A stretch of DNA of 14,215 nucleotides from a bacterium (lineage in GTDB: Bacteria; Hydrothermota; Tepidihabitantia; Tepidihabitantales; Tepidihabitantaceae): assembly GCA_046485285.1 (NCBI GenBank), contig JAWOHE010000009.1:1-14215 (forward strand). Reading direction: 5' to 3'. Shown here piece after piece: positions 769 through 13,335 of the stretch. The position numbers were made by a program, and so were the translations under genes. Position 1 is the stretch's first letter, and every line of letters starts with the position of its first letter. The notes below the pieces were generated by a model. It saw nothing but the letters and a program-made list of their open reading frames with translations, did not search any database and was not told where the DNA came from.

Positions 769-2436
769 GTGCTAACCGATATTGAGATTGCCCACAGCAT
801 CAAGCTCAGGCCGATAACCGACATCGTCAGGGCGCTGGGCATCGACGATATGGACCTGGTCCTGCCCAACGGCAACTACAAGGCGAAGCTGTCGCTAAGG
901 CTGTTCGACCGGCTCGCCGACCGGCCAAAGGGGAAGCTGGTGATGGTGACCGCGACGACGCCGACGAAGTACGGCGAGGGCAAGACGACTGTCTCGGTCG
1001 GGCTGTCGATGGCGCTCAACCGGATCGGGAAGAGGTCAATCGTCGTCCTGCGCGAGCCGTCGCTGGGGCCGGTGTTCGGCATCAAGGGCGGCGCGGCGGG
1101 CGGGGGATATTCCCAGGTCCTGCCGATGGAGGACATCAACCTTCACTTCACCGGCGACATCCACGCGGTCAGCTCGGCCCACAACCTGCTCGCGGCCCTG
1201 CTCGACAACTCGATTCACTTCGACAACCCGCTGCGGATTGACGAGCGCGAAATCTTCTTCCCGCGGACGATGGACATGAACGACCGCGTGCTCCGGACGA
1301 TGGTCGTCGGGCTGGGCGGCCGTGCCAATGGGCCGGCCCGCGAGGACCGGTTCGTCATCACCGCCGCGTCCGAGGTGATGGCGATTCTCGCGCTGTCGGC
1401 CTCGCGGCAGGAGCTCAAGGAGCGGCTGGGCCGGATTCTCGTCGCGATGAGCTACGACGACAAGCCGGTGACCGCGGCCGACCTGCACGCGACCGGGGCG
1501 ATGGCGGCCCTGCTCAAGGACGCGCTCAAGCCCAACGTCGTCCAGACCAGCGAGCACACGCCGGCGTTCATCCACGCCGGGCCGTTCGCGAACATCGCCC
1601 ACGGCACCGCGAGCGTGGTCGCGGCGAACATGGCCCTGCGGCTGAGCGAGTACGCGGTCATCGAGGCCGGGTTCGGGTCCGACCTCGGGGCCGAGAAGTT
1701 CGTCGACATCGTCGCGCCGGCCGCGGGCTGGGACATCGCCGGCTGCGTGCTGGTGACGACGGTGCGCGCGCTCCGGCACCAGGGCGGGGCGCGGGACGCC
1801 CGCCGGGGCAAGCTGACCGACCTGTGGCAGGGGATGGGCAACCTCGTGCGGCACATCGAGATCTGCCGGGCGCTCGGGCTCGAGCCGGTGGTCGCGCTCA
1901 ACCGCTTCGGCGACGATTCGGACGAGGACATCGGGCTGATCCGGAAGTACTGCGCCGAGCATGGTGCTGAGTTCGCGACGAGCGACGGGTTCGTACGCGG
2001 GAGCGAGGGCTGTGTCGAGCTGGCCGAGGCGGTCACGCGCCAGGTCGAGGCGAAGCCGGGCGCGAGCCGGCGCATCTACGACCCGGATGCGCCGGTCGAG
2101 GAGAAGATCGAGGCGGTCGCGATGAAGATCTACGGGGCGGAACGGGTCGTGTTCACGCCCCGGGCCGAGCGCGACATCCGGCTGGCGAGGGCGCTCGGCT
2201 ACGACAAGCTGCCGGTCTGCATCGCCAAGACGCCGCTTTCGCTGTCCGACGACCCGGAGTGCACCGGCGCGTGCCGCGGGTTCAAGGTCGCGATCTCGGC
2301 GGTGAACGTCTCGGCCGGGGCCGGGTTCCTGGTGCCGGTCGCCGGCGACATGATGCTGATGCCCGGGCTGGCGAAGCGGCCGAACGCGGCGGGCGTGGAC
2401 ATGGCCGAGGACGGCAGTATCACCGGGCTGTCGTGA
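769..2436 (+). CDS. fhs: Formate--tetrahydrofolate ligase (formyltetrahydrofolate synthetase)
   Basis: 555 aa with FTHFS motifs TPTKYGEGKTT, LREPSLGPVFGIKGGAAGGGY, PMEDINLHFTGDIHA, HAGPFANIAHG, EAGFGSDLGAEKF, PVCIAKT and C-terminal MPGL. GTG start with a strong SD. Confidence 0.97.
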   Translation: MLTDIEIAHSIKLRPITDIVRALGIDDMDLVLPNGNYKAKLSLRLFDRLADRPKGKLVMVTATTPTKYGEGKTTVSVGLSMALNRIGKRSIVVLREPSLGPVFGIKGGAAGGGYSQVLPMEDINLHFTGDIHAVSSAHNLLAALLDNSIHFDNPLRIDEREIFFPRTMDMNDRVLRTMVVGLGGRANGPAREDRFVITAASEVMAILALSASRQELKERLGRILVAMSYDDKPVTAADLHATGAMAALLKDALKPNVVQTSEHTPAFIHAGPFANIAHGTASVVAANMALRLSEYAVIEAGFGSDLGAEKFVDIVAPAAGWDIAGCVLVTTVRALRHQGGARDARRGKLTDLWQGMGNLVRHIEICRALGLEPVVALNRFGDDSDEDIGLIRKYCAEHGAEFATSDGFVRGSEGCVELAEAVTRQVEAKPGASRRIYDPDAPVEEKIEAVAMKIYGAERVVFTPRAERDIRLARALGYDKLPVCIAKTPLSLSDDPECTGACRGFKVAISAVNVSAGAGFLVPVAGDMMLMPGLAKRPNAAGVDMAEDGSITGLS

Positions 2437-2437
2437 G

Positions 2438-3163
2438 ATGAGCGCGGCCGCCTGCGAGGCCCGGGAGCTCGGCCGCGACTACGGCCGCCTGCGGGCGCTC
2501 GACGGGGTGAGTTTCGCGGTCGCGCCGGGCGAGGTGTTCGGGATCATCGGCCCGAACGGCTCGGGCAAGACCACGACCCTGCGGATCTTCGCGACCCTGC
2601 TGCGGCCGACCCGGGGCGCGGCGACCGTGTTCGGGCGGGACGTCGTGCGCGACGACCGCGAGGTGCGGCGGATGATAAGCTACCTGCCCGAGGACGCCGG
2701 CGCGTACAAGGGGCTGACCGGGTTGCAGTACCTCGAGTTCATGGCCGAGCTCTACGCCCGGGACCGGGCCGAGCGGGACCGGACCGTCGCGGCCGCGGTC
2801 GAGCTGGCCGGGCTGGGCGAGCGGCTGAGGAGCAAGGTCAGGACCTACTCCAAGGGGATGGCCCGGAAGCTGCTGCTGGCCCGCGCGCTCGCGACCGGGC
2901 CGAAGCTCGCCATCCTCGACGAGCCGACCTCCGGGCTCGACGTCGCGAACTCGACCGAGCTGCGCGCCCGGATCCGTGAGTTCGCGCGCCGGGGCACGAC
3001 CTTCCTGCTCTCCTCGCACAACATGCTCGAGGTCGAGTTCCTGTCCGACCGCGTGGCGCTGGTCGCCGCCGGCCGGGTCATCGAGCAGGGCACTCCGGCC
3101 GGGCTCAAGGAGAAGTACCGGGCGCGCAACCTCGAGGAGGTCTTCCTGGGGGCGACGCGATGA
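2438..3163 (+). CDS. ABC transporter ATP-binding subunit (NatA/DrrA-like exporter)
   Basis: Walker A GPNGSGKTT, signature variant YSKGM, Walker B ILDEPTSGLD, switch SSH. Starts 1 nt after the fhs stop. Confidence 0.93.
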   Translation: MSAAACEARELGRDYGRLRALDGVSFAVAPGEVFGIIGPNGSGKTTTLRIFATLLRPTRGAATVFGRDVVRDDREVRRMISYLPEDAGAYKGLTGLQYLEFMAELYARDRAERDRTVAAAVELAGLGERLRSKVRTYSKGMARKLLLARALATGPKLAILDEPTSGLDVANSTELRARIREFARRGTTFLLSSHNMLEVEFLSDRVALVAAGRVIEQGTPAGLKEKYRARNLEEVFLGATR

Positions 3164-4419
3164 GGGCGTTCGGGGCGATCGTCCTGAAGGAGCTGCGCGA
3201 GCTTGTCACGTTCCAGACCCTCGCGCCGATGCTGGTCGTCGTCGTCATCTACGGGTTCATCGGCCGGGCAATCCGGGGCGAGCGGGCGAAGGAGTCCGGC
3301 CCGGAGCTGGTGCTGGTCGTGGACGAGGACCGCTCCCGGCCCGCGGAAAGCATCCGCGCGCTGCTCGAGTCCGCCGGCTTCGTGCTCCTCGACGCGCCGG
3401 ATACCGCCGCGGCGCTGGCCGAGGCCCGGGAGGTCGACGCCGGCTGGGTCGTCGTCCTGCCGGCCGGGCTGGGCGACTCCGTGGCCGCGCGCCGGCCGGC
3501 CGGGATCGAGGCCTACGCGCTGGTCCGGGGTTTCGCGGTGAGCTGGATGATGCGAAGCGGCCGGTTCGGGGCCGCGCTCCGGGGCATCAACGCCGAGCTG
3601 GTCCGCGAGCGGCTGGCGGCGGACCGGCCGGGCGAGCCGCCCGAGCGAGCGCTCGAGCCGGTCACCATCCGCCAGTTCGTGATGGTGCGGGACCGGGTCG
3701 CGCCGGGCACGCCCGAACAGCTGGCCGAGGTCGCGATGTCGCAGACCGTGCTCATCCCGGCGATTCTGCTGCTGCTCATCATCGTCGCGAGCCAGATGAT
3801 TGCCGGCTCGGTCGGACAGGAGAAGGAGAACAAGACGCTCGAGACCCTGCTCACCGTCCCGGTGAACCGGATGACGGTGGTACTGGGCAAGATGCTCGGG
3901 GCGGTGCTGTTCGCGCTGGTGTCGAGCGCGCTCGTGTTCGCCGCGCTCTACTACTACATGGGCTCGATGACCGGGGGCGCGGGTCCGGGAACCGCGATCG
4001 CGGCCGCGCTGGGAATCGCGCCCGGGCCGGGCGACTGGCTCCTGCTCGGGCTGGCGCTCTTTCTCGCGGTCGTCTGCGCGCTGTCGCTGGTCTCGGTGCT
4101 GGCGGTGTTCGCCGACGACGCGCGCACCGCTCAACTCGCGACCACGCCGGTGATGGTGCTGGTGCTCCTGCCGTTCATGCTGACGACGTTTCTCGACGTC
4201 GGCTCGGCCGCCCTGCCGATGCGCGTGCTGGTCTATGCGATACCTTTCTCCTACCCGTTCCTCATCCAGCGCGCCGCGATGTTCGGCGACTACCGCCTGA
4301 TCGCCTTCGGGCTCGGCTACATGGCCGCGTTCGCCGCACTGATGGTGTTCATCGCCGCGAGGCTCTACTCGACGGACCGAATCTTGACCGCCCGGCTCAA
4401 CCTGCGCCGGCGCAGGTAG
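3160..4419 (+). CDS. ABC-2 type permease (NatB-like)
   Basis: N-terminal KELRE plus a TM helix, a large extracytoplasmic loop, the EKENKTLETLLTVP...GK motif and about 5 further TM helices. ATGA overlap with the ATPase gene. Confidence 0.9.
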   Translation: MRAFGAIVLKELRELVTFQTLAPMLVVVVIYGFIGRAIRGERAKESGPELVLVVDEDRSRPAESIRALLESAGFVLLDAPDTAAALAEAREVDAGWVVVLPAGLGDSVAARRPAGIEAYALVRGFAVSWMMRSGRFGAALRGINAELVRERLAADRPGEPPERALEPVTIRQFVMVRDRVAPGTPEQLAEVAMSQTVLIPAILLLLIIVASQMIAGSVGQEKENKTLETLLTVPVNRMTVVLGKMLGAVLFALVSSALVFAALYYYMGSMTGGAGPGTAIAAALGIAPGPGDWLLLGLALFLAVVCALSLVSVLAVFADDARTAQLATTPVMVLVLLPFMLTTFLDVGSAALPMRVLVYAIPFSYPFLIQRAAMFGDYRLIAFGLGYMAAFAALMVFIAARLYSTDRILTARLNLRRRR

Positions 4420-4427
4420 CCGGCACT

Positions 4428-4471
4428 GAAAAGCAACAGGACTGCGACCTCCAAGGGCTGCAGTCCTGTTG
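4428..4471 (-). terminator. Intrinsic terminator, minus-strand polarity
   Basis: Perfect 12-bp stem CAACAGGACTGC (4434-4445) / GCAGTCCTGTTG (4460-4471). It is followed by CUUUUC on the minus strand but by TCAAAA on the plus strand. May also stop the convergent ABC operon. Confidence 0.75.
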
Positions 4472-4510
4472 TCAAAACCCCAGTCTTGGCCCAGACTCCT
4501 GATTGCCTGA
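4428..4510 (-). ncRNA. Candidate sigma54-dependent small RNA (~80 nt)
   Basis: Bounded by a consensus -24/-12 promoter and a terminator on the same strand. No ATG or GTG start inside; one small hairpin (AGUCU/AGACU) plus the terminator hairpin. Confidence 0.65.
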
Positions 4511-4520
4511 GTACTTCCTA

Positions 4521-4537
4521 TGCAATTCCCGTGCCAA
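4521..4537 (-). promoter_or_regulatory. Sigma54 (RpoN) -24/-12 promoter
   Basis: Minus strand TTGGCACGGGAATTGCA matches TGGCACG-N4-TTGCW. GG at 4535-4534 and GC at 4523-4522 have the canonical spacing. Predicted TSS about 4510. Confidence 0.85.
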
Positions 4538-4561
4538 GTTCAGTCTTGGCGGCGCAAGATA

Positions 4562-4574
4562 CAACGTCTTGATA
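4562..4574 (-). promoter_or_regulatory. IHF-type binding site
   Basis: Minus strand TATCAAGACGTTG is an exact WATCAANNNNTTR match, at about -52 to -64 from the sigma54 TSS. Confidence 0.65.
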
Positions 4575-4625
4575 AACAGCGGCTTATGGTTATGGGTGGA
4601 TGGGCAGATACTCCTCGAGTAGCCA

Positions 4626-4671
4626 CTGCCGCTGAATTCTGCGTTAAGGCTGTTGCAGATTTCGGCGGTAG
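4626..4671. promoter_or_regulatory. Candidate upstream activator sequence (enhancer) for a sigma54 activator
   Basis: 17-bp imperfect inverted repeat CTGCCGCTGAATTCTGC (4626-4642) / GCAGATTTCGGCGGTAG (4655-4671), 14/17 matches, 12-bp spacer, at about -116 to -161. Confidence 0.5.
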
Positions 4672-4739
4672 GAGGGTGATGTTCGCGGGAAGCCTATGTG
4701 GGAAGGTCGGCGTCTAAGTACCATTAGGCAACACCGTGT

Positions 4740-6929
4740 TTGAGTAGCATACTGCTTCTAACCCTGCTCGGCGCAGGGCATTTTTCAGTTACCGGTTCGG
4801 TCCTGGACGCCTTGTCCGGAGCCGGACTTGCGCGCGCCAACGTCGTGGTTGGCGAAGCCGGTGCCGGTGCGGCAACCTCGATTGACGGGAGGTTCGCCAT
4901 TGCTGGCCTTGCGCCCGGCCGCTACTTGTTGGTCGCGAGTCACGTGGGGTTCCTGCCAGAGACGCTCCCGGTCGTCACCCAATCGGACGCGAGCCCGCAC
5001 GTCGAGTTTCGACTCCGACCTGAGCCGGTCGCGGTGCCGGAGGTCGCGGTGCGCGCGGCCCGGACCGTGCGCGGCGAGGCGGTGACAACCCGGGTCGTCA
5101 GCGCCGATGACCTGCGCGATCGCGCCGGCGGGTTCGTCCAGGACCCGGTGCGCTCATTGAGCTTCCTGCCCGGGGTATCGCACAGCGCGCGTGGCGAGTG
5201 GAGCGGCCAGTACGTCGTCCGGGGCGGGGACCCGGATGAAAACCGGCTCTGGTTCGACAATGTCGAGCCGCTCTGGCCTTACCACCTGCTCGGGTTCAGT
5301 TCGGCAATAAACCCGGATGTGATATCGAGCATCGAGTTCTACCCGACCGCGTTCCCGGCCCGGTACGGCGGCGCGCTGTCGAGCGTCACGGTCGTCCGGC
5401 CGCGGACCGAGGGAAGGGCCGAGGGCGCGTTCGCGTATGACCCGATGAACCTCAAGGCGAGTTACGCCGGTCGGCTCGATGACATCGAGGTGGCGGCCTC
5501 GGTGCGCCGGACGTTCTACCACGTTCAGTTCGGGCCGCTCGGGTCAGGCCGCGACAACCAGCCCAGCTACAATGACCTGTCGGCGCGGCTGGGCGTGCCG
5601 CTCGGCCGCGAGCACCGGGTCCGGGTGACGGTGCTGACCGGCTCGGACCGGATCCTCACCGAACTGCGCGGGACAGCGACCGATGTGTCCGAGTCCGGGC
5701 GTGCGGTCGGCCTGACGCTGGAGTCCGACTACGGCCGGGTCCGGACCGAGGTCACCGGCTGGTACACCGACCACGAGTTCGCGCTCGAGCCGACCCGGTG
5801 GCAGGGCCGGGGCGGCACCGCCGAGCGCGAGGCCGGGGCCAGGTTCGAGGCCTTCACCACGGTCGGGGCCGCGGACCTCAGCGGCGGGCTCCAGGCCGGC
5901 GAGGCGACCTTCTCAGGCAACCTGCTCGAGCGCGAGGGGTTCGGCCGAAGCGACCCCATCGCCGCGGGCTGGCTCGACGCCCGGTTCCGGCTCGGACCGC
6001 GGCTGGCTCTTGATGGCGGCCTGCGGGTCGAGGAAGTGCGTTGGGTCGCGGACCGCGCAATCGAGCCGCGGCTCGTCGCGAGCTACCGGCTCGGGCCGGG
6101 CGCGGCGGTCCGGGCCGGCTGGCGCCGGGTCCACCAGCACCCGTACGGCTTCCTGCGCCGGAGCGTGGCCGCGGTCGTCTTCGACAACGAGTACTCGCTC
6201 TACGAGACCTACCGGGACGGCGTGCTGTCGGCCAAGGCGGCGGACCACTTCTCGCTTGCGGGCGAGGTCGCGCTCGGCGAGCTCGCCCGGCTCGACGTCG
6301 AAGCCTACCAGAAGGAGTACTCGCGCCTGCCGAGCTGGCAGGAGGATTCACTCGGTCGGGGGATCGGGTACGGTGCCGAGGGCTTCGGCCGCGCGCGGGG
6401 CGTCGAGCTGGCGCTCGAGACAGGGCCGGCCGCGGGCTGGAGCGGCCAGCTCAGCTATGGGCTCGCCTGGTCGCGGAAGCAACAGGGCGCGGACACGATA
6501 CCCTACTGGGACGAGTACGACCGCCGCCACTCGGTAAACCTCATCGGGATGAAGGAGTGGCCGGGCGACTGGCGGCTGACCGCGACCCTGCATCTCCACA
6601 CCGGCTCGCCCTACACGCCGCTCGTCTACTACCGCAACCGGCGGGAGGTCGGCGGGTCGGACCTGCGGCGCGAGGGCAGCGGCTGGGTGGTCACTGGCGA
6701 GAAGAACTCGCTTCGGGTGCCGGCCTACCACCGGCTCGACCTCAAGCTCCAGAAGGAGCTCGCCCACCTGCCGCTCCGGCCGTTTTTCTACGTCGAGATT
6801 CTCAACGTCTATAACCACGAGAACGTCTACCACCTCGTCCAGTTCGAAACCGCGAGGGGCGACATCCGGACCGGCCGGTTCACCGGCATCCAGTTCATCC
6901 CGCTCATCGGGATGGGCGGCCGTTTCTGA
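4740..6929 (+). CDS. TonB-dependent outer-membrane receptor with N-terminal carboxypeptidase-regulatory-like domain
   Basis: Signal peptide; VTGSVLDA...GAAT..DGRF.I...PGRY.L..SHVGF domain; plug motifs (DPVRSLSFLPGV, VRGGDPDEN, FPARYGGALSSV); beta-barrel motifs (EPRL, ARGVEL, DRRHS, PAYHRLDL, NVYNHEN); C-terminal Phe. TTG start is uncertain. Confidence 0.9.
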   Translation: MSSILLLTLLGAGHFSVTGSVLDALSGAGLARANVVVGEAGAGAATSIDGRFAIAGLAPGRYLLVASHVGFLPETLPVVTQSDASPHVEFRLRPEPVAVPEVAVRAARTVRGEAVTTRVVSADDLRDRAGGFVQDPVRSLSFLPGVSHSARGEWSGQYVVRGGDPDENRLWFDNVEPLWPYHLLGFSSAINPDVISSIEFYPTAFPARYGGALSSVTVVRPRTEGRAEGAFAYDPMNLKASYAGRLDDIEVAASVRRTFYHVQFGPLGSGRDNQPSYNDLSARLGVPLGREHRVRVTVLTGSDRILTELRGTATDVSESGRAVGLTLESDYGRVRTEVTGWYTDHEFALEPTRWQGRGGTAEREAGARFEAFTTVGAADLSGGLQAGEATFSGNLLEREGFGRSDPIAAGWLDARFRLGPRLALDGGLRVEEVRWVADRAIEPRLVASYRLGPGAAVRAGWRRVHQHPYGFLRRSVAAVVFDNEYSLYETYRDGVLSAKAADHFSLAGEVALGELARLDVEAYQKEYSRLPSWQEDSLGRGIGYGAEGFGRARGVELALETGPAAGWSGQLSYGLAWSRKQQGADTIPYWDEYDRRHSVNLIGMKEWPGDWRLTATLHLHTGSPYTPLVYYRNRREVGGSDLRREGSGWVVTGEKNSLRVPAYHRLDLKLQKELAHLPLRPFFYVEILNVYNHENVYHLVQFETARGDIRTGRFTGIQFIPLIGMGGRF

Positions 6930-9099: not shown

Positions 9100-10458
9100 T
9101 CAGCGCAGCACCGGCGACCAGTCCGGCGAGAAGGCACCGCCGACCCGGGTGACCCGGGTCTGGTTCGCGCCGTTCCAGTCCATCACGTAGATTTCCGGCG
9201 CGCCCTCGCGGGTCGAGGTGAACGCGATGTGCAGGCCGTCGGGCGACCAGCACGGGTCCTCGTTGTTGCCCCGGCTGGTGAGCCGGACGTAGGTGTCGCC
9301 GAGGATGTTGGTGACGCAGATCTGGTTTCCGCCCCCGGGCTGGCGCTGGACAAAGGCGATGAGGTCGCCCTGCGGCGACCACGCCGGCGAGGTGTTGTAA
9401 CTGCCCTCGAAGGTCAGCCGCCGGACGTCGGTGCCGTCCGCGGTCATGATGTAGATCTGGGGCGCGCCGGTGCGGTCGGAGACGAAGGCGATGTGGCGGC
9501 CGTCGGGCGACCAGGCCGGGGAGATCTCGATGGCGCCGTCCTTGGTGAGCCGGCGCAGGCGGCCGCCCGACACGTCCATCAGGTAGAGCTCCGAATTGCC
9601 CTCGAAGCTGAGCGAGACGGCGAGCGTCCTGCCGTCCGGCGACCAGGCCGGGGTCGTGTTGAGCCCGTCCCGGGAGCAGATCTTCGTGTTCGCGCGGCTG
9701 GCGAGGTCGAGAATGTGGATGTCGAGCGAGCGGGCGGAGTAGCGGCAGTAGGCGAGCCGGCCGCCATCGGGCGACCACTCCGGGTAGAGCCGGATGCAGC
9801 CGTCGGAGGTGAGCTGGACCAGGTTCGCGCCGTCGTAGTCGACCAGCGCGAGTTCCTTGACCCCGGGCCCGGTCTGGCGGGAGAAGGCGAACCTTGTGCG
9901 GCTGACGCCTTCGTTGCCGGTCAGCAGCTTGATGATGTCGTCGGCGATTTCGTGGGCGAGCCAGCGCCGGTTGGGCCGGTGCGGGTAGCTCTTCGAGGCG
10001 ATGCGCCGGTTGGTGTTGAGGTCGTAGAGGTTGATGTCGAGCGCCGGTCCGCCGCGCTTCTCGACGACGGTGCCGGTGATGAGGACCTCGGCGCCGGTCG
10101 AGCCCCAGCCCTTGAGGTCGACCTTCGGGTCGGTCTCGAAGTTGAAGACATGGCCGGACTCCGGCTCCTGGAACGTGAAGTGGAGCGAGAACCGCAGGTC
10201 GGCCTCGAGGACCTGGCGGATTTCGCCGGTGTGGTTCCGGACCGAGTCCGGGATGCCAACCACGGCCCGGAACGGCGCGATGACCAGGCTCAGGCGGCGC
10301 CGGCCGCCGGTCTGGGTGAGCCGGAGCCAGATCTCGTCGCCGAAGCTCTGGGCCGGGGCGGTGAAGACGCTGTCCTCGGCCGCAAGCGTGCCGGCCAGGA
10401 CGAGGAGCACGGCGGAGACGACCGCGCGTCGGGTGCCTGCGGGCGGCCGGGCGAGCAT
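9100..10458 (-). CDS. tolB: TolB (Tol-Pal system beta-propeller protein)
   Basis: Signal peptide, TolB N-domain (QVLEADLRFS, RWLAHEIADDII..LTG..G....RFAF, DYDGAN) and repeated P.WSPDG (PD40) blades. Start moved to ATG 10458 because a promoter lies just upstream. Confidence 0.88.
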   Translation of the reverse strand: MLARPPAGTRRAVVSAVLLVLAGTLAAEDSVFTAPAQSFGDEIWLRLTQTGGRRRLSLVIAPFRAVVGIPDSVRNHTGEIRQVLEADLRFSLHFTFQEPESGHVFNFETDPKVDLKGWGSTGAEVLITGTVVEKRGGPALDINLYDLNTNRRIASKSYPHRPNRRWLAHEIADDIIKLLTGNEGVSRTRFAFSRQTGPGVKELALVDYDGANLVQLTSDGCIRLYPEWSPDGGRLAYCRYSARSLDIHILDLASRANTKICSRDGLNTTPAWSPDGRTLAVSLSFEGNSELYLMDVSGGRLRRLTKDGAIEISPAWSPDGRHIAFVSDRTGAPQIYIMTADGTDVRRLTFEGSYNTSPAWSPQGDLIAFVQRQPGGGNQICVTNILGDTYVRLTSRGNNEDPCWSPDGLHIAFTSTREGAPEIYVMDWNGANQTRVTRVGGAFSPDWSPVLR

Positions 10459-10466
10459 TGAAGGGA

Positions 10467-10494
10467 ATTCTAGGAGACCGGCGGGCCGGGTCAA
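10467..10494 (-). promoter_or_regulatory. Sigma70-type promoter of tolB
   Basis: TTGACC (10494-10489)-16 bp-TAGAAT (10472-10467), 8 nt before the ATG; no SD, so near-leaderless. Confidence 0.7.
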
Positions 10495-10504
10495 GCCCGG
10501 AGGC

Positions 10505-10532
10505 TTGACATCCGGCAACCCCCGACTAGCAT
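10505..10532 (+). promoter_or_regulatory. Sigma70-type promoter of the two-component operon
   Basis: TTGACA (10505-10510)-16 bp-TAGCAT (10527-10532), ATG at 10550. Confidence 0.7.
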
Positions 10533-10549
10533 CAGTCGTCAGACAGCCA

Positions 10550-11827
10550 ATGCTCTCCCGCCACAAGTCCTTCTTCAGCGCGCGCCTGCTCCAGCTCTAC
10601 TTCGCAATCGGGATACTCGTCCTGGGCGGGTTCTGGTTCGCATACTCGCAGGTGCTCCTGCACCGGCTGTCCCGGCTCTGGGCGAGCTACTCGACGACGC
10701 TCTCGGACCAGCTCGAGGCCGAGACCCAGGTCCGTTCCCGCATCTACGCCAAGTTCATGAGCCGGGCGACCGAGCCGTCCGAGGCCGGGTCGCCCGAGCT
10801 CGACATCATCTTCGAGGAGGTCATCAAGAAGATCGACTTCCCGGTTCTCATCACCGACGCCCGGGGCCGGCCGACCTCGACGCACCGCAACCTCGGGGTC
10901 GAGCACCCGGACAGCCTCGTCCTGGCGCGGATCGTCGGCGAGCTCGACGCGGAATGCGAGCCGATACCGCTGGTGCTGAGCGACCGGGACACGACCCGGC
11001 CCTTCGGGATGATCCACTACGGACTGTCGCCTTCGACCCGGACCCTGCGGACGCTGAGCGCGAGCCTCAACGACTCGGTGCGGTCGCTGTCGCTGTTCGC
11101 GATGCTCCAGGTGTTCCTGCTCGTCGGGTTCGTGGCAATCGGGGTCTGGGGCATCCTCGCCTACAAGCGGCGCGAGCAGGAGCACATCTGGACCGCGCTG
11201 GCCAAGGAGACCGCCCACCAGCTCGCGACGCCGATGTCGTCGCTGGCCGCCTGGCTGGATATCCTCCGCGGCCGGGAGGAGCCGGAGACGGTCGTCGAGC
11301 TCGAGCAGGACCTGCGCCGGATGCGCGAAGTGCTCGACCGGTTCAGCCGCATCGGCAAGCCGCCCGAGCTGGCCGACCAGCGGGTCGGCGGGCTCATCAC
11401 CGACTCGGTGCGGTTTGTCGAACGCCGGGCGCCGCGCGGCATCCGGTTCTCGGTCGAGGTCCGCGACGACCCGGTCGTCCGGGTCGACCCGGTGCTGTTC
11501 GCCTGGATGCTCGAGAACCTGCTCAAGAACGGGGTCGACGCGGTCGGCAGCGGGCCGGGCGAGGTCGCGGTGCGGGCCGGGCTGGGCCCGGACTGGCGCC
11601 AGTTCGAAATCGAGGTCATTGACAGCGGCGAGGGCGTCAAGGTCGAACGGGCGTTCGAGGCCGGGGTGACGACCAAGCCGCACGGCTGGGGCGTCGGGCT
11701 GGCGCTGGCCCGCCGGATCGTCGAGGACTACCACCGCGGCCGGCTGGTGCTCGGCGAGAGCGGACCGGGCCGGACGGTCTTCCTCATCACCCTGCCGGTT
11801 GAGCCGGGCCGCCAGGAGGCGAGTTGA
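10550..11827 (+). CDS. Membrane sensor histidine kinase
   Basis: Two TM helices around an extracytoplasmic domain; H box KETAHQLATPMSSL, N box ENLLKNGVDA, G1 DSGEG, G2 GWGVGL. True start is likely MLSRHK (10550), since the longer ORF overlaps tolB. Confidence 0.92.
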   Translation: MLSRHKSFFSARLLQLYFAIGILVLGGFWFAYSQVLLHRLSRLWASYSTTLSDQLEAETQVRSRIYAKFMSRATEPSEAGSPELDIIFEEVIKKIDFPVLITDARGRPTSTHRNLGVEHPDSLVLARIVGELDAECEPIPLVLSDRDTTRPFGMIHYGLSPSTRTLRTLSASLNDSVRSLSLFAMLQVFLLVGFVAIGVWGILAYKRREQEHIWTALAKETAHQLATPMSSLAAWLDILRGREEPETVVELEQDLRRMREVLDRFSRIGKPPELADQRVGGLITDSVRFVERRAPRGIRFSVEVRDDPVVRVDPVLFAWMLENLLKNGVDAVGSGPGEVAVRAGLGPDWRQFEIEVIDSGEGVKVERAFEAGVTTKPHGWGVGLALARRIVEDYHRGRLVLGESGPGRTVFLITLPVEPGRQEAS

Positions 11828-13335
11828 CGCGGCTTCTGTGGATTGACGACGAGATTGACCTGCTCCGGCCGTTCATCTACGGCCTGCGCGAGCGGGGCTA
11901 CGAGGTCGCTACCGCGTCCAACGGCCCGGACGGTCTCGATCTGCTCGGGAGCGGGAGCTACGACCTCATCCTGCTCGACCAGATGATGGCCGGGATGACC
12001 GGGCTCGAGGTCCTGCGTCGGGCCAAGGAGCGGGCGCCGAACGTGCTGGTGGCGATGATCACCAAGTCGGACGAGGAGGCGCTGATCGACGAGGCCTACG
12101 GCGACCTCGTCGACGACTTCCTCATCAAGCCGTTCACGCCCGCCCAGCTCCTGGCGGTCCTCAAGCGCCTGCTCGACAAGCGCCGGCTCGTCGGCGAGCG
12201 CATCGGCCGGCAGTACCTGGCCGCGGTCGGGCCCGGCGACCCGCCCCGGGACTGGCCCGGCTGGGTCGAGCGCTACCGCCTGCTGGTGTCCTGGCAGGAG
12301 AAGCTCGGCCGGTACGGCGACAGCGCGCTCGCTGAAATCCAGGAGGAGCGCTGGCGCGAGGAGAACGAGGAGTTCGGCCGGTTCGTCGAGCAGGGCTACC
12401 GTTCCTGGCTCGGGGGGGGCGGGCCGGTGCTGTCGCACCGGGTGATGACCGAGCACGTCCTGCCGCACTGCGACGAGCGGCCGACCTGCCTCCTGATCCT
12501 CGACGCGATGCGCACCGACCAGTGGCTCGCCATCGAGCCGGAACTGCGCGAGTTCTGCTCGGTCGAGACCGGGCACTACTGTTCGGTCCTGCCCAGCGCG
12601 ACGCCCTACTCGCGCAACGCGATGCTCAGCGGCCTCCTGCCACTCGACATCCGGCGCCGCTACCCGGACCGCTGGGTCTTCGAGGAGTCGGGCCAGAACC
12701 GCTACGAGGAGGAGCTCCTGACCGAGCACCTCCGGCGCGTCGGCTTCGGGCACCGCTTCGCCTACCATCGGGCCGGCAGCGGCGAGGAGCTCGAGCGGGT
12801 GCGCGGGCTCCTGCTCGACCGCGAGGTCCGGCTCTCGGTGCTGATCGTCAACTTCCTCGACCTGCTCATCCATTCGGTCAAGGCCAACCGGGTTCTCGAC
12901 GAAATCGTCGCGAACGACCCGGCGCTGGTCGCGATGACGCGGGTCTGGTTCCGTGCCTCGCCGCTCGCGTCAATCATCCGGGCGCTGGTCCGGCGCGACC
13001 GGACGGTGGTCGTGACCAGCGACCACGGTTTCATCCGGGTCCGACGGCCGACCGAGATCCACGGCGGCCGGAAGATGTCGGCCAACCTGCGCTACAAGCA
13101 CGGCGGGGCAATCCGGGTCGACGACCGGCACGCCCTGCTCATCCGTGACCCGGCCGAGTACCGCCTGCCGGTGGACGCGGAGACGAGCATCTTCGCCATC
13201 GCCCGGTCCGACTACTACTTCATCTACCCGACCAAGCCGCGCGAGTACGAGCGCACCTACAAGAACACCTACCAGCACGGCGGCATCTCGCTTCCGGAGA
13301 TGGTCGTGCCGGTCGCGACGCTCCGGCAGAAGTAG
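11824..13335 (+). CDS. PorX-like response regulator with PglZ (alkaline-phosphatase-superfamily) domain
   Basis: REC domain (LLWIDDE, LLDQMM, ITKS, IKP) plus PglZ motifs LILDAMRTDQW, LPSATPYSRNA, TSDHGF, YQHGGISLPEMVVP. TTGA overlap with the kinase gene. Confidence 0.92.
   Translation: MTRLLWIDDEIDLLRPFIYGLRERGYEVATASNGPDGLDLLGSGSYDLILLDQMMAGMTGLEVLRRAKERAPNVLVAMITKSDEEALIDEAYGDLVDDFLIKPFTPAQLLAVLKRLLDKRRLVGERIGRQYLAAVGPGDPPRDWPGWVERYRLLVSWQEKLGRYGDSALAEIQEERWREENEEFGRFVEQGYRSWLGGGGPVLSHRVMTEHVLPHCDERPTCLLILDAMRTDQWLAIEPELREFCSVETGHYCSVLPSATPYSRNAMLSGLLPLDIRRRYPDRWVFEESGQNRYEEELLTEHLRRVGFGHRFAYHRAGSGEELERVRGLLLDREVRLSVLIVNFLDLLIHSVKANRVLDEIVANDPALVAMTRVWFRASPLASIIRALVRRDRTVVVTSDHGFIRVRRPTEIHGGRKMSANLRYKHGGAIRVDDRHALLIRDPAEYRLPVDAETSIFAIARSDYYFIYPTKPREYERTYKNTYQHGGISLPEMVVPVATLRQK

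Follow-up and report, generated by a model that had tools for sequence, protein, structure and literature searches.

A predicted sigma-54-dependent small RNA gene and its probable activator in a lineage of candidate division WOR-3

Does a perfect sigma-54 promoter that is followed by a terminator, with no usable open reading frame (ORF) between them, mark a small RNA gene, and if so, what switches it on? This question was raised by the minus strand of the window (the whole stretch of 14,215 nucleotides analysed here), where an earlier note had read positions 4428-4671 as a sigma-54 small RNA unit. Our results largely support that reading. The elements of the unit are as follows.

4650..4668, minus strand: distal predicted activator (UAS) site, CCGCCGAAATCTGCAACAG, 132 nt 5' of the start of the -24 box, 14.6 bits
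4626..4644, minus strand: proximal predicted activator (UAS) site, ACGCAGAATTCAGCGGCAG, 108 nt 5' of the start of the -24 box, 13.8 bits
4562..4574, minus strand: IHF-consensus site, TATCAAGACGTTG, between enhancer and promoter at -64/-52
4521..4536, minus strand: sigma-54 -24/-12 promoter, TGGCACGGGAATTGCA, matching TGGCACG-N4-TTGCW at 12 of 12 specified positions
4428..4510, minus strand: predicted small RNA of about 82 nt, its ends inferred from the promoter geometry and the U-run
4473..4510, minus strand: 5' part of the predicted RNA with the G tracts CAGGAGUCUGGG and CUGGGGUUUUGA, a candidate interaction region whose G-tract columns are kept in six units
4428..4471, minus strand: intrinsic terminator, a 12-bp stem (4471-4460 with 4445-4434) and then CUUUUC (tail, 4433-4428)

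In the promoter, GG at -24 and GC at -12 are separated by exactly 10 nt, which is the geometry of a sigma-54 promoter, and setting the C of TTGC at -12 puts the predicted start at about 4510. We found that TGGCACGGGAATTGCA was the sole match in the window to TGGCAC-N5-TTGCW with at most one mismatch (shuffle mean, 0.12), and that the 2.34-Mb assembly, both strands included, has only two exact matches to TGGCACG-N4-TTGCW, one of them being this box. In addition, TATCAAGACGTTG was the sole match to WATCAANNNNTTR in the window, with 0.01 expected. When the units of relatives (described below) were read by eye, the IHF consensus was exact in opposite orientation in G002 and had one mismatch in G059, and no clear IHF site was seen in G004, G001 or G018. 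Counted from the predicted start, the centres of the two predicted UAS sites lie at about -149 and -125, and the sites would fit the usual range of sigma-54 enhancers, about 80-150 bp upstream. Together they form a 17-nt imperfect inverted repeat (arms 4671-4655 and 4642-4626), whose arms, read by eye, are complementary at 14 of 17 positions. The automated repeat search missed it because the repeat holds no 6-nt exact seed.

The stem of the terminator is 100% complementary over 12 bp, and the model of the family holds 16 pairs. The U-run after the hairpin is short (four U), and a generic terminator scan of the window left the hairpin site uncalled. The terminator lies 9 nt past the stop codon (4419) of a convergent ABC-2 permease gene. 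Furthermore, the folding energy of an 88-nt stretch is -39 kcal/mol (z = -2.82), a value that none of 200 shuffles matched. The 5' part of the RNA has no consistently conserved helix, the individual folds differing among six units, and outside the genus the sequence of this 5' half is only loosely conserved. Only three minus-strand ORFs of at least 20 aa overlap 4420-4540.

Minus strand: 36-aa TTG frame, continuing through the terminator and beyond the U-run
4564-4472, minus strand: 30-aa frame, with its start upstream of the promoter
4626-4540, minus strand: 28-aa frame, upstream of the sigma-54 box

We saw no ORF of conserved length in the ORF list of the window or in the sequences of the relatives, read by eye. 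Meanwhile, no Rfam family reached its gathering score in the window. The best sub-threshold match covering the RNA, obtained with permissive filters on 4400-4760, was RsmY (11.2 bits, E 1.9, threshold 57), and neither Qrr nor GlmY gave a match in the scans of the window. The earlier note had described a 17-bp inverted repeat at -161/-116, an exact IHF consensus at -64/-52, a consensus -24/-12 box, about 80 nt lacking a usable ORF, and a hairpin of 12 bp with a U-run, and had recognised no known RNA family. We found every one of these elements on the minus strand, ordered as the note had given them, and the Rfam scan agreed with the last remark.

To see how widely the unit occurs, we relied on synteny and covariance models in a comparison set of 44 genomes of the family, including the genome that holds the window (G000). 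A BLASTN search of 4400-4760 against 40 relatives gave no match. This is no argument against conservation, since protein identity between the neighbouring orthologues is itself as low as 53-59%. At the same-genus loci, the unit was found after the orthologue of the ABC-2 permease (53-59% protein identity) in all three that were read. A pattern scan 3' of the ABC-2 orthologues with the strict box matched the window alone, because the boxes of the relatives read CGGCAC or TGGAAC; several of the scanned stretches were also misplaced. An RNA-only covariance model built from the four same-genus units, with the promoter left out (R1), then matched G018 in another genus (41 bits, E 2e-8), and this match has TGGAACGCACATTGCA upstream at the correct distance. 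A second model of promoter plus RNA (R2) brought in G059 (46 bits), which bears TGGAACGGATATTGCA. In this way the unit was recovered in five other genomes spanning three genera of one family, and the covariance models count six carriers in the 44 genomes (G000, G001, G002, G004, G018 and G059).

The six aligned stretches are 113-119 nt long, from 8 nt before GG to 3 nt past the T-run (4 nt in G018). GG-N10-GC is present in 6/6 units, and GG, ACG and TTGC are invariant in the alignment. In the terminator stem, 11 of the 16 pairs were changed on both sides, that is, in a compensatory manner, and 94.6% of the cells were paired; slid controls were paired at 31-52%, and none of 500 shuffles attained the observed values. 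In addition, the genes flanking the unit in G018 and G059 differ, so the unit is independent of its neighbours. A possible seventh unit was found in G014 (G014:C44, 20.5 bits). The covariance models gave no match in the same-genus genome G003, which is 86% complete. We discarded a match in G041 (R1, 31.9 bits; R2, 26.7 bits) as being the terminator of a gene for an RRM protein; it carries no sigma-54 box. A pattern scan of metagenomes returned 13 stretches with one true unit (L069, 107.8 bits), identical in sequence to that of G002, and added no new members.

The assembly of G000 (2,337,807 positions) is 88% complete and has 69% GC. The family was placed through the homologues of the activator described below, to which NCBI gives the name candidate division WOR-3; the lineage is thus non-proteobacterial, as the earlier note had supposed. 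We found that G000 encodes rpoN (Sigma54_DBD, 156 bits, C37), two genes of the HU/IHF family and eight strong matches to Sigma54_activat, each above 160 bits; the earlier note had proposed to look for such factors. That note had also stated that the window encodes no activator, and this holds for the ten large ORFs scanned, none of which has a sigma-54 activator domain. It had named three outcomes as speaking against its reading, namely a genome without rpoN, no conservation of the unit with its promoter and terminator, and relatives with a coding sequence between the two. None of them occurred; the unit is conserved with a covarying stem, and the stretches of the relatives hold no coding sequence between promoter and terminator.

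Which of the activators acts on this promoter? One gene on another contig of G000 is the best candidate, on the basis of motif sharing and gene adjacency; seven further strong activator genes are present in the genome.

G000:C101:53284-54870: proposed activator gene, family-wide, encoding a receiver-like domain, AAA+ and HTH

In Pfam, the protein matches Sigma54_activat at residues 187-351 and HTH_8 at 486-526, and no match was obtained in residues 1-186. A model of residues 1-190 (pLDDT 84.3, pTM 0.83) had receiver domains as its best PDB matches, for example the FleR receiver 7w9h (TM 0.76, target-normalised). With a predicted receiver fold, a sigma-54 AAA+ domain and a Fis-type HTH, the modelled protein has the make-up of an NtrC-family activator. 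In G000 the acidic pair after strand 1 reads EG and not DD, which makes phosphorylation uncertain.

For the binding sites, a simple search for tandem GC-rich half-sites told us little at 69% GC. We turned instead to a palindromic matrix of 19 nt, for whose training only activator-adjacent promoters, from 27 genomes, were used. A sigma-54 box lies 3' of the activator gene in 27 of the 30 orthologous loci. This matrix reaches at least 14 bits at only 12 positions of G000. In 5/6 short-RNA units its top two matches are at -129..-135 and -108..-114, the same two positions as in the 27 independent promoters beside the activator gene. Furthermore, among 15 sigma-54-like boxes tested in G000, only those at C57, C101, C22 and C90 have matrix sites. 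The 12-mer GCCGAAATCTGC, which lies inside the distal UAS site, has four copies in G000 against 0.24 expected (C57, C90 and twice C101), and every copy is upstream of a sigma-54 box. The activator-adjacent sites of G000 itself score only 7.7 and 10.1 bits, because their spacer is 9 nt against the 7 nt of the matrix. The second perfect sigma-54 box of the genome (C5:21377, with a near-copy at C70:2517) was considered as a promoter of the same activator and rejected; it has no site for the trained matrix and so belongs to another activator. From the shared motif and its positions, the C101 regulator is probably the activator of the window promoter, being the likeliest one in G000.

A conserved, sigma-54-driven structured RNA absent from Rfam comes after the activator gene itself. 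In G000, core matches to this long RNA extend over about 150 nt. It was found in 13/16 sampled genomes of the family and in 0/135 sampled elsewhere in the phylum, and we regard it as a candidate new structured RNA family. The short RNA was also considered as a homologue of the long one, and this was rejected; an nhmmer profile of the long RNA matched only C101 in G000 (E 3e-25) and left C57 unmatched. A word like AGGAGTCTGG common to both RNAs was too weak to keep, with three copies in the genome against 4.5 expected. In other genera, the same arrangement of enhancer and sigma-54 box directly drives PAS-domain genes (G020:C91 and G012:C14). To judge from these sequences, the window RNA resembles a satellite within a regulon of several RNAs, like those of CbrB-CrcZ/CrcY, LuxO-Qrr or Nla19-Pxr. 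The fuller picture is an RNA-centred regulon of this WOR-3 family, in which a divergent activator is always followed by the structured RNA and has further promoters under its control, those of short RNAs, of long-RNA paralogs and of a few genes for sensors or secreted proteins; we hold this picture tentatively, at somewhat below an even chance.

What the unit has in sequence, namely a predicted promoter and terminator of its own, no conserved ORF and conservation as a unit, is what a stand-alone small RNA gene should have. We therefore consider it reasonably probable that this locus holds a noncoding RNA gene standing on its own, with a product of about 82 nt, a sigma-54 box, the C101 regulator as its likeliest activator, and a hairpin and U-run that stop transcription before the ABC-2 gene. 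RNA polymerase with sigma-54 would bind the -24/-12 box and would be activated by the C101 regulator from the two sites near -149 and -125, possibly with bending by IHF or HU at -64/-52. Transcription would end at the hairpin and U-run, just before the convergent permease gene, and an RNA of about 82 nt would be made. A look through sequencing runs listed none of RNA for this sequence. This RNA may act in trans through its G-rich and mostly unpaired 5' half, whose partner could be a C/U-rich RNA or some RNA-binding protein, and the regulon may also include the long activator-adjacent RNA and a few protein genes. A duplex-energy search for targets among 9,319 starts preceded by a Shine-Dalgarno sequence gave a best value of -46.4 kcal/mol, compared with -48.6 to -50.2 for five shuffled RNAs. 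As this is no better than the shuffles, we propose no target. On the protein side, CsrA (PF02599) was found in 0/44 genomes of the family, all three controls (E. coli, B. subtilis and T. maritima) being detected, and neither Hfq (PF17209) nor ProQ (PF04352) was found in the 88% complete assembly of G000. We therefore cannot point to any known chaperone or partner, and a Csr-type sponge was rejected on the CsrA result.

As a rival to base pairing, the RNA could be a protein-binding decoy in the manner of RsmY/RsmZ and CrcZ, with GGA or GGG tracts that titrate some RNA-binding protein. Such tracts recur in each of the six units and also in the possible seventh one, RsmY alone gave a sub-threshold Rfam match over the RNA, the search for base-pairing targets gave no signal, and CbrB-CrcZ/CrcY, the closest regulatory analogue, works by sequestration according to passages of PMC6296734. 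However, the score of RsmY is at noise level, about 82 nt with two or three tracts is small for a sponge, and CsrA, Hfq and ProQ were not found in the searches above. We therefore regard the decoy as unlikely. The sequence may instead be a leader or attenuator with a leaky terminator, whose downstream gene was lost or inverted in this genus so that a vestigial short transcript was left. Two of the relatives could be read in this way. In G059 a same-strand gene for a multi-PAS sensor begins about 200 nt beyond the hairpin, and the run after that hairpin is weak (CUUCGUUU); G018 has same-strand genes for a 2-hydroxyacid dehydrogenase and a DUF1015 protein about 415 nt downstream. The PAS-domain genes that stand directly under the same arrangement in other genera also fit. 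But these downstream genes of G018 and G059 are mutually unrelated, and in 4/6 genomes (G000, G001, G002 and G004) a convergent gene comes next and has its stop codon no more than about 10-20 nt from the terminator. Furthermore, the unit was kept with compensatory changes in its stem, although the orthologues nearby have diverged as far as noted above. A leader of this kind is rather improbable in our view.

The closeness of the convergent gene suggests a further possibility, in which the RNA acts in cis on the ABC-2 operon, by collision of its sigma-54-dependent transcription with the operon transcript or by pairing with the 3' end of that transcript, with the shared hairpin as a bidirectional terminator. 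The convergent layout is found in all four same-genus carriers, and in the window only 9 nt separate the terminator from the permease stop. Read on the plus strand, the hairpin is preceded by an A-run but lacks a U-run behind it, so plus-strand transcripts could run through and overlap the RNA. However, the units of G018 and G059 have no adjoining ABC-2 gene, a query with the window permease found no ABC-2 orthologue anywhere in G018, and simple antisense action needs no conserved 5' G tracts; we give cis action a low probability. Chance co-occurrence of motifs, or a non-functional remnant, has in its favour the short U-run and the fact that the sigma-54 pattern by itself, with one mismatch allowed, was matched at least once in 20 of 200 shuffles of the window. 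Against it, promoter, spacing and terminator are conserved jointly, with covariation, in six genomes of three genera, and the enhancer sites keep the two positions seen in the 27 independent promoters. This last explanation is very hard to credit. The stand-alone RNA gene thus remains our preferred reading.

The named sigma-54-dependent small RNAs (Qrr, GlmY, CrcZ/CrcY and Pxr) are from Proteobacteria and Myxobacteria, where they sit atop major switches of lifestyle. A limited search of the literature found nothing that joins WOR-3 with sigma-54, and the papers listed in a broader, likewise limited search, 20 of 451, dealt with other phyla. The window RNA is of an already known kind, a sigma-54-driven small RNA predicted to be under the control of an activator. 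What is new is that its UAS sites match the enhancer just 3' of a family-wide activator gene, which is itself followed by an RNA unknown to Rfam. If expressed, it would be a first regulatory RNA for this uncultured phylum, from which none is known to have been described, and would come with a likely activator, a binding motif and sibling promoters; the RNA, the activator link and the motif were all derived by comparing sequences alone. The regulon could be tested without cultivation, since the promoter, the activator and the RNA are transferable into E. coli. The long activator-adjacent RNA is a larger prize than the window RNA. If the RNA-centred regulon is true, it would have evolved independently as a counterpart to LuxO-Qrr or CbrB-CrcZ, and, with CsrA, Hfq and ProQ not found, it would imply a novel RNA partner or mode of action.

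Several known systems can be compared with this one. In Enterobacteria, GlmY is a short RNA with a sigma-54 promoter and upstream sites for its activator and IHF; it lies beside its two-component system (GlrR) and acts by protein mimicry towards RapZ. The Rfam scans of the window, which gave no GlmY match, set the window RNA apart from it. In Vibrio, several short sigma-54-dependent Qrr RNAs are under one response-regulator-type activator, LuxO, and they have a common conserved 5' seed and need Hfq. In contrast, the short and long RNAs here are not detectably homologous, Hfq was not found in G000, and the Rfam scans gave no Qrr match. CrcZ is about 400 nt long with A-rich Hfq/Crc-binding motifs, and crcZ lies directly downstream of cbrB, just as the long RNA adjoins the activator gene here. 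The window RNA differs from CrcZ in being about 82 nt and G-rich, in a genome where Hfq was not found, and the two have no relationship in sequence or in Rfam; the hosts also differ, candidate division WOR-3 as against Gammaproteobacteria. According to passages of PMC6296734, CbrB of Pseudomonas is a sigma-54 activator that directly switches on more than one regulatory RNA gene and some protein-coding operons, from IHF-dependent promoters in which activator subsites are joined by an IHF site and a sigma-54 box. For Myxococcus, passages of PMC5568312 describe Pxr as a small RNA of about 108 nt with several stem-loops, which in some genera is joined by paralogs that have sigma-54 promoters and enhancer sites of their own. 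The window RNA differs from Pxr in that it lies on another contig than the activator gene and that its sole conserved helix is the terminator. No Pxr match was seen in the Rfam scans, an observation of weight only if Rfam has a Pxr family. Nevertheless, the Pxr paralogs parallel the activator-adjacent RNA and its satellites in this family.

The earlier note had proposed a complete sigma-54 transcription unit producing an unannotated small RNA of about 80 nt. We found that this unit is a real conserved feature and that the interpretation is supported. From its sequence, the unit is predicted to be a sigma-54- and activator-dependent small RNA of a known type, here in an unstudied phylum. The window is the entire 14,215-bp contig C57 of the source genome G000 (2.34 Mb, 69% GC, 88% estimated completeness), and the unit lies on the minus strand within the 320 bp that separate an ABC-2 permease gene from a TonB-dependent receptor gene, heading towards the permease gene's 3′ end. 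The features are as follows.

769-2436, plus strand: formate-tetrahydrofolate ligase gene (Pfam)
2438-3163, plus strand: ABC ATPase gene (Pfam)
3160-4419, plus strand: ABC-2 permease gene (Pfam)
4471-4460 with 4445-4434, minus strand: terminator, perfect 12-bp stem followed by CUUUUC
about 4510 to about 4428, minus strand: predicted transcript of about 82 nt, with the C of TTGC set at -12
4536-4521, minus strand: sigma-54 box TGGCACGGGAATTGCA, the sole near-match within the window
4574-4562, minus strand: IHF consensus WATCAANNNNTTR, the single match in the window (0.01 expected)
4671-4655 and 4642-4626, minus strand: arms of an imperfect 17-nt inverted repeat, 14 of 17 positions complementary by eye
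from about 4740, plus strand: TonB-dependent receptor gene with CarboxypepD_reg and Plug domains (Pfam)

The box, the IHF consensus, the inverted repeat, and the hairpin with its U-run are all present as the note had described them, and a minus-strand ORF scan found no plausible ORF in the predicted transcript. Only two sites in the genome, this box among them, match TGGCACG-N4-TTGCW exactly, and the predicted RNA stretch folds better than all of 200 shuffles (z = -2.82). The U-run is short, and a generic terminator scan made no call at the hairpin site. In addition, the expected machinery was found in the genome, which encodes rpoN, eight strong sigma-54 activator genes, and two HU/IHF-family genes.

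Some other features of the window were also seen. An exact 10-nt direct repeat, GCCAAGACTG, occurs on the minus strand at 4481-4490 (within the RNA) and 4541-4550 (just 5′ of the -24 box); by eye it is absent from the relatives' units, and it may be due to chance. The motif TTAGACGCCG(A/G)CC lies on the minus strand at 4700-4715, some 30-40 nt ahead of the start of the TonB-dependent receptor gene, and is kept in G000 and at the matching place in the same-genus relatives G002 and G004 (loci L016 and L017); it may belong to the promoter or leader of that receptor gene. Meanwhile, 10031-13335 holds a histidine-kinase-type ATPase gene and, after it, a PglZ-domain response regulator, and no link to the unit was seen.

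BLASTN of the spacer gave no match in 40 relatives, which is expected because the permease orthologues are only 53-59% identical even within the genus. Although BLASTN was blank, the unit was recovered in five further genomes, with a covarying terminator stem. It lies on the opposite strand after the permease orthologue in all three same-genus loci that have this orthologue, with a box (CGGCACGATTCTTGCT, CGGCACGATTGTTGCA, or TGGAACGCTCATTGCA), a G-rich stretch (GGAGUCUGGG...GGGGUUUGAC), and then a long hairpin with differing stem letters and a T-run. A covariance model restricted to the RNA, promoter excluded (R1), was searched in all 44 genomes of the family, which the names of protein homologues place in candidate division WOR-3, and matched the four genus members, G018, and G041. 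The G018 match, in another genus, scored 41 bits and has TGGAACGCACATTGCA upstream at the correct distance; since R1 was built without the promoter, this is an independent confirmation of it. The G041 match was rejected, being the terminator of an RRM-protein gene without a sigma-54 box. A second model including the promoter (R2) additionally recovered G059, from a third genus, with the box TGGAACGGATATTGCA, and found nothing in 88 genomes of the class beyond the family. G014, from a fourth genus, gave a full-length but weak R2 match (20.5 bits, E 2e-4 over 26 kb, filters off) and is only a possible member. A metagenome pattern scan added no new unit sequence.

The six aligned stretches, which start 8 nt ahead of the GG and end 3 nt (4 in G018) beyond the T-run, are 113-119 nt long, and all of them keep the GG, ACG, and TTGC of the box. 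Pairing holds for 94.6% of the cells of the terminator stem, and 11 of its 16 pairs have both-sided changes, values reached by none of 500 shuffles (slid controls, 31-52% paired). Fitting the alignment to the model biases this count towards structure; the compensatory changes are also plain in the raw MAFFT alignment. Furthermore, the possibility of a protein-gene remnant was examined, and the relatives' units contain no CDS between promoter and terminator.

In the four same-genus genomes the unit and the ABC-2 operon converge, and in G000, G002, and G004 the unit also diverges from the TonB-dependent receptor gene. In G018 it stands upstream of 2-hydroxyacid dehydrogenase and DUF1015 genes, and in G059 it is flanked on its own strand by the genes for a HAD hydrolase and a multi-PAS sensor. 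Since the neighbours differ among G018, G059, and the genus, the unit moves independently of them, which fits an independent gene. In both G018 and G059, same-strand genes follow the unit, which may serve as a leader in those two genomes. We favour an RNA acting in trans, because the unit is retained while its neighbours change. Upstream of the unit in G018, a 1.6-kb stretch (locus L048, G018:C63, 1-1630) has no convincing long ORF, and its translations seem repetitive and of low complexity.

The 12-mer GCCGAAATCTGC, inside the distal repeat arm, has four copies in the genome (0.24 expected), one in C57, one in C90, and two, 21 nt apart, in C101, each upstream of a sigma-54-like box. The C101 copies lie immediately beyond the stop codon in the gene (C101:53284-54870, minus strand) for a 528-aa activator, which matches Sigma54_activat (187-351) and HTH_8 (486-526) in Pfam and nothing in residues 1-186. 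Full-length orthologues, 42-63% identical, occur in most of the 44 family genomes; of the rest, several have split or partial matches and five have paralog-level matches only. Among 5.8 billion proteins there are about 110 near-full-length relatives, beyond which the matches weaken abruptly, from E 1e-104 to 1e-48, and are with ordinary NtrC-type regulators; several close relatives carry the NCBI name "candidate division WOR-3 bacterium". The predicted model of the N-terminal 190 residues (pLDDT 84.3, pTM 0.83) resembles response-regulator receiver domains, which indicates that the C101 protein is a divergent response regulator of the NtrC family. At the acidic pair that follows strand 1 it has EG, against DD in most orthologues. 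The shared enhancer motif and the adjacency, and these only, make it the likely activator of the window unit.

In 27 of the 30 orthologous loci, the activator gene is followed on its own strand by a sigma-54-like box that matches at 9 or more of 12 positions. This box is mostly about 120-180 nt past the end of the matched activator region, and about 370-380 nt past it in a subgroup whose alignment ends about 55 residues early. A 19-nt palindromic matrix (consensus CTGCCGCATAATGCGGCAG) was trained on the 170 nt upstream of these 27 boxes, with the six window-type units excluded. Most training promoters have two sites, at about -131 to -137 and -110 to -116 from the box; the best two matches fall at -129 to -135 and -108 to -114 in five of the six window-type units, and the G059 unit has the distal site only. 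The window sites score 14.6 and 13.8 bits, and no more than 12 of the genome's 2.34 million positions reach 14 bits. Among 15 sigma-54-like boxes tested in G000, sites at those positions were found in C57, C101, C22, and C90 only. With at most one mismatch, the palindrome occurs 3-5 times per genome in four of five other genomes tested, and its reversed control pattern has no match in those genomes.

The activator-adjacent promoter is predicted to drive a conserved long RNA with the core (GAGAGUC)-GACCGAGCC-hairpin-GUCGCGCUC-...-ACUCUCGACGGGGACCGA and then a strong terminator. Promoters with the same enhancer and their products are as follows.

G000:C101:52950-53270 (locus L075, outside the window), directly after the activator gene (minus strand): long RNA, with two enhancer sites, IHF-like TATCAATGACTTA, sigma-54-like box TGGTACGCTCTGTGCA, structured RNA, and terminator
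G041:C27 and G020:C145: paralog of the long RNA
G020:C91 and G012:C14: PAS-domain genes
G041:C48, G020:C57, and G012:C10: transcripts with long conserved leaders
G000 C22:13959 (promoter region C22:13826-14110): secreted-protein gene with a signal-peptide-like start
G000 C90:7202 (C90:7202-7332): transcript of about 470 nt facing a convergent gene

The long RNA core aligns in G000 over 53100-52950 (about 150 nt). Six loci gave no Rfam family at E up to 0.1. Its model (R3) matched 13 of 16 sampled family genomes, G000 included, and none of 135 sampled from the remainder of the phylum; the matches outside the training set (G005, G015, and G024) each lie just 3′ of an activator orthologue. The long RNA accompanies this orthologue across the family. 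We consider it a candidate new RNA family, and it has no detectable homology to the short window RNA. The C22 and C90 enhancers are at the same distance from the box as in the window. The C22 leader has AGGAGTCTGG in common with the window RNA. The C90 transcript may hold a small ORF, and by eye the product of its convergent gene begins hexapeptide-repeat-like. A weak nhmmer match to the long RNA core (E 0.26) at G000:C45:20890-20950, minus strand, keeps GGACCGAGCC and CGCGCUC and may represent either a diverged second copy or a chance match. Apart from that of the window, the genome has a single perfect sigma-54 box, at G000:C5:21377 (plus), with a near-identical copy at G000:C70:2517 (plus); both have CTGCCG-N17-CGGCAG about 116 nt upstream and are followed by a strong Shine-Dalgarno, a 10-codon ORF, a GC-rich hairpin, and a convergent gene. 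Since they lack an enhancer-matrix site, another activator is likely there.

The 5′ half of the window RNA has no conserved helix and carries two or three G tracts in every member, and it is the likely interaction surface. A Csr-type decoy was ruled out as such because CsrA was found in none of the 44 family genomes. Neither Hfq nor ProQ was found in the 88%-complete G000 assembly, and a duplex-energy search over 9,319 candidate translation starts did no better with this RNA than with shuffled RNAs. From these null results, the RNA would act in one of two ways: by base pairing to C/U-rich sites, with no known chaperone involved, or through an unknown protein that it binds.

The window RNA has no Rfam match and thus stands outside the CrcZ/CrcY, Qrr, and GlmY families and probably outside Pxr. 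A limited literature search found no publication joining WOR-3 and sigma-54, and all 20 listed among 451 papers on sigma-54-dependent small RNAs concern other phyla; from that search alone, we take this RNA to be unpublished. For the unit, a candidate activator can now be named, the enhancer motif is defined, and sibling promoters are known. LuxO-Qrr and GlrR-GlmY are analogues of such an arrangement, in addition to two systems with a similar regulon. The promoters through which CbrB activates crcZ, crcY, and some operons combine activator subsites with an IHF site and a sigma-54 box (PMC6296734). The pxr gene, with a sigma-54 promoter of its own, is found downstream of nla19, which encodes a sigma-54 response regulator, and some genera carry pxr paralogs (PMC5568312). 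The regulon logic predicted for the window RNA is like that of CbrB-crcZ/crcY and nla19-pxr.
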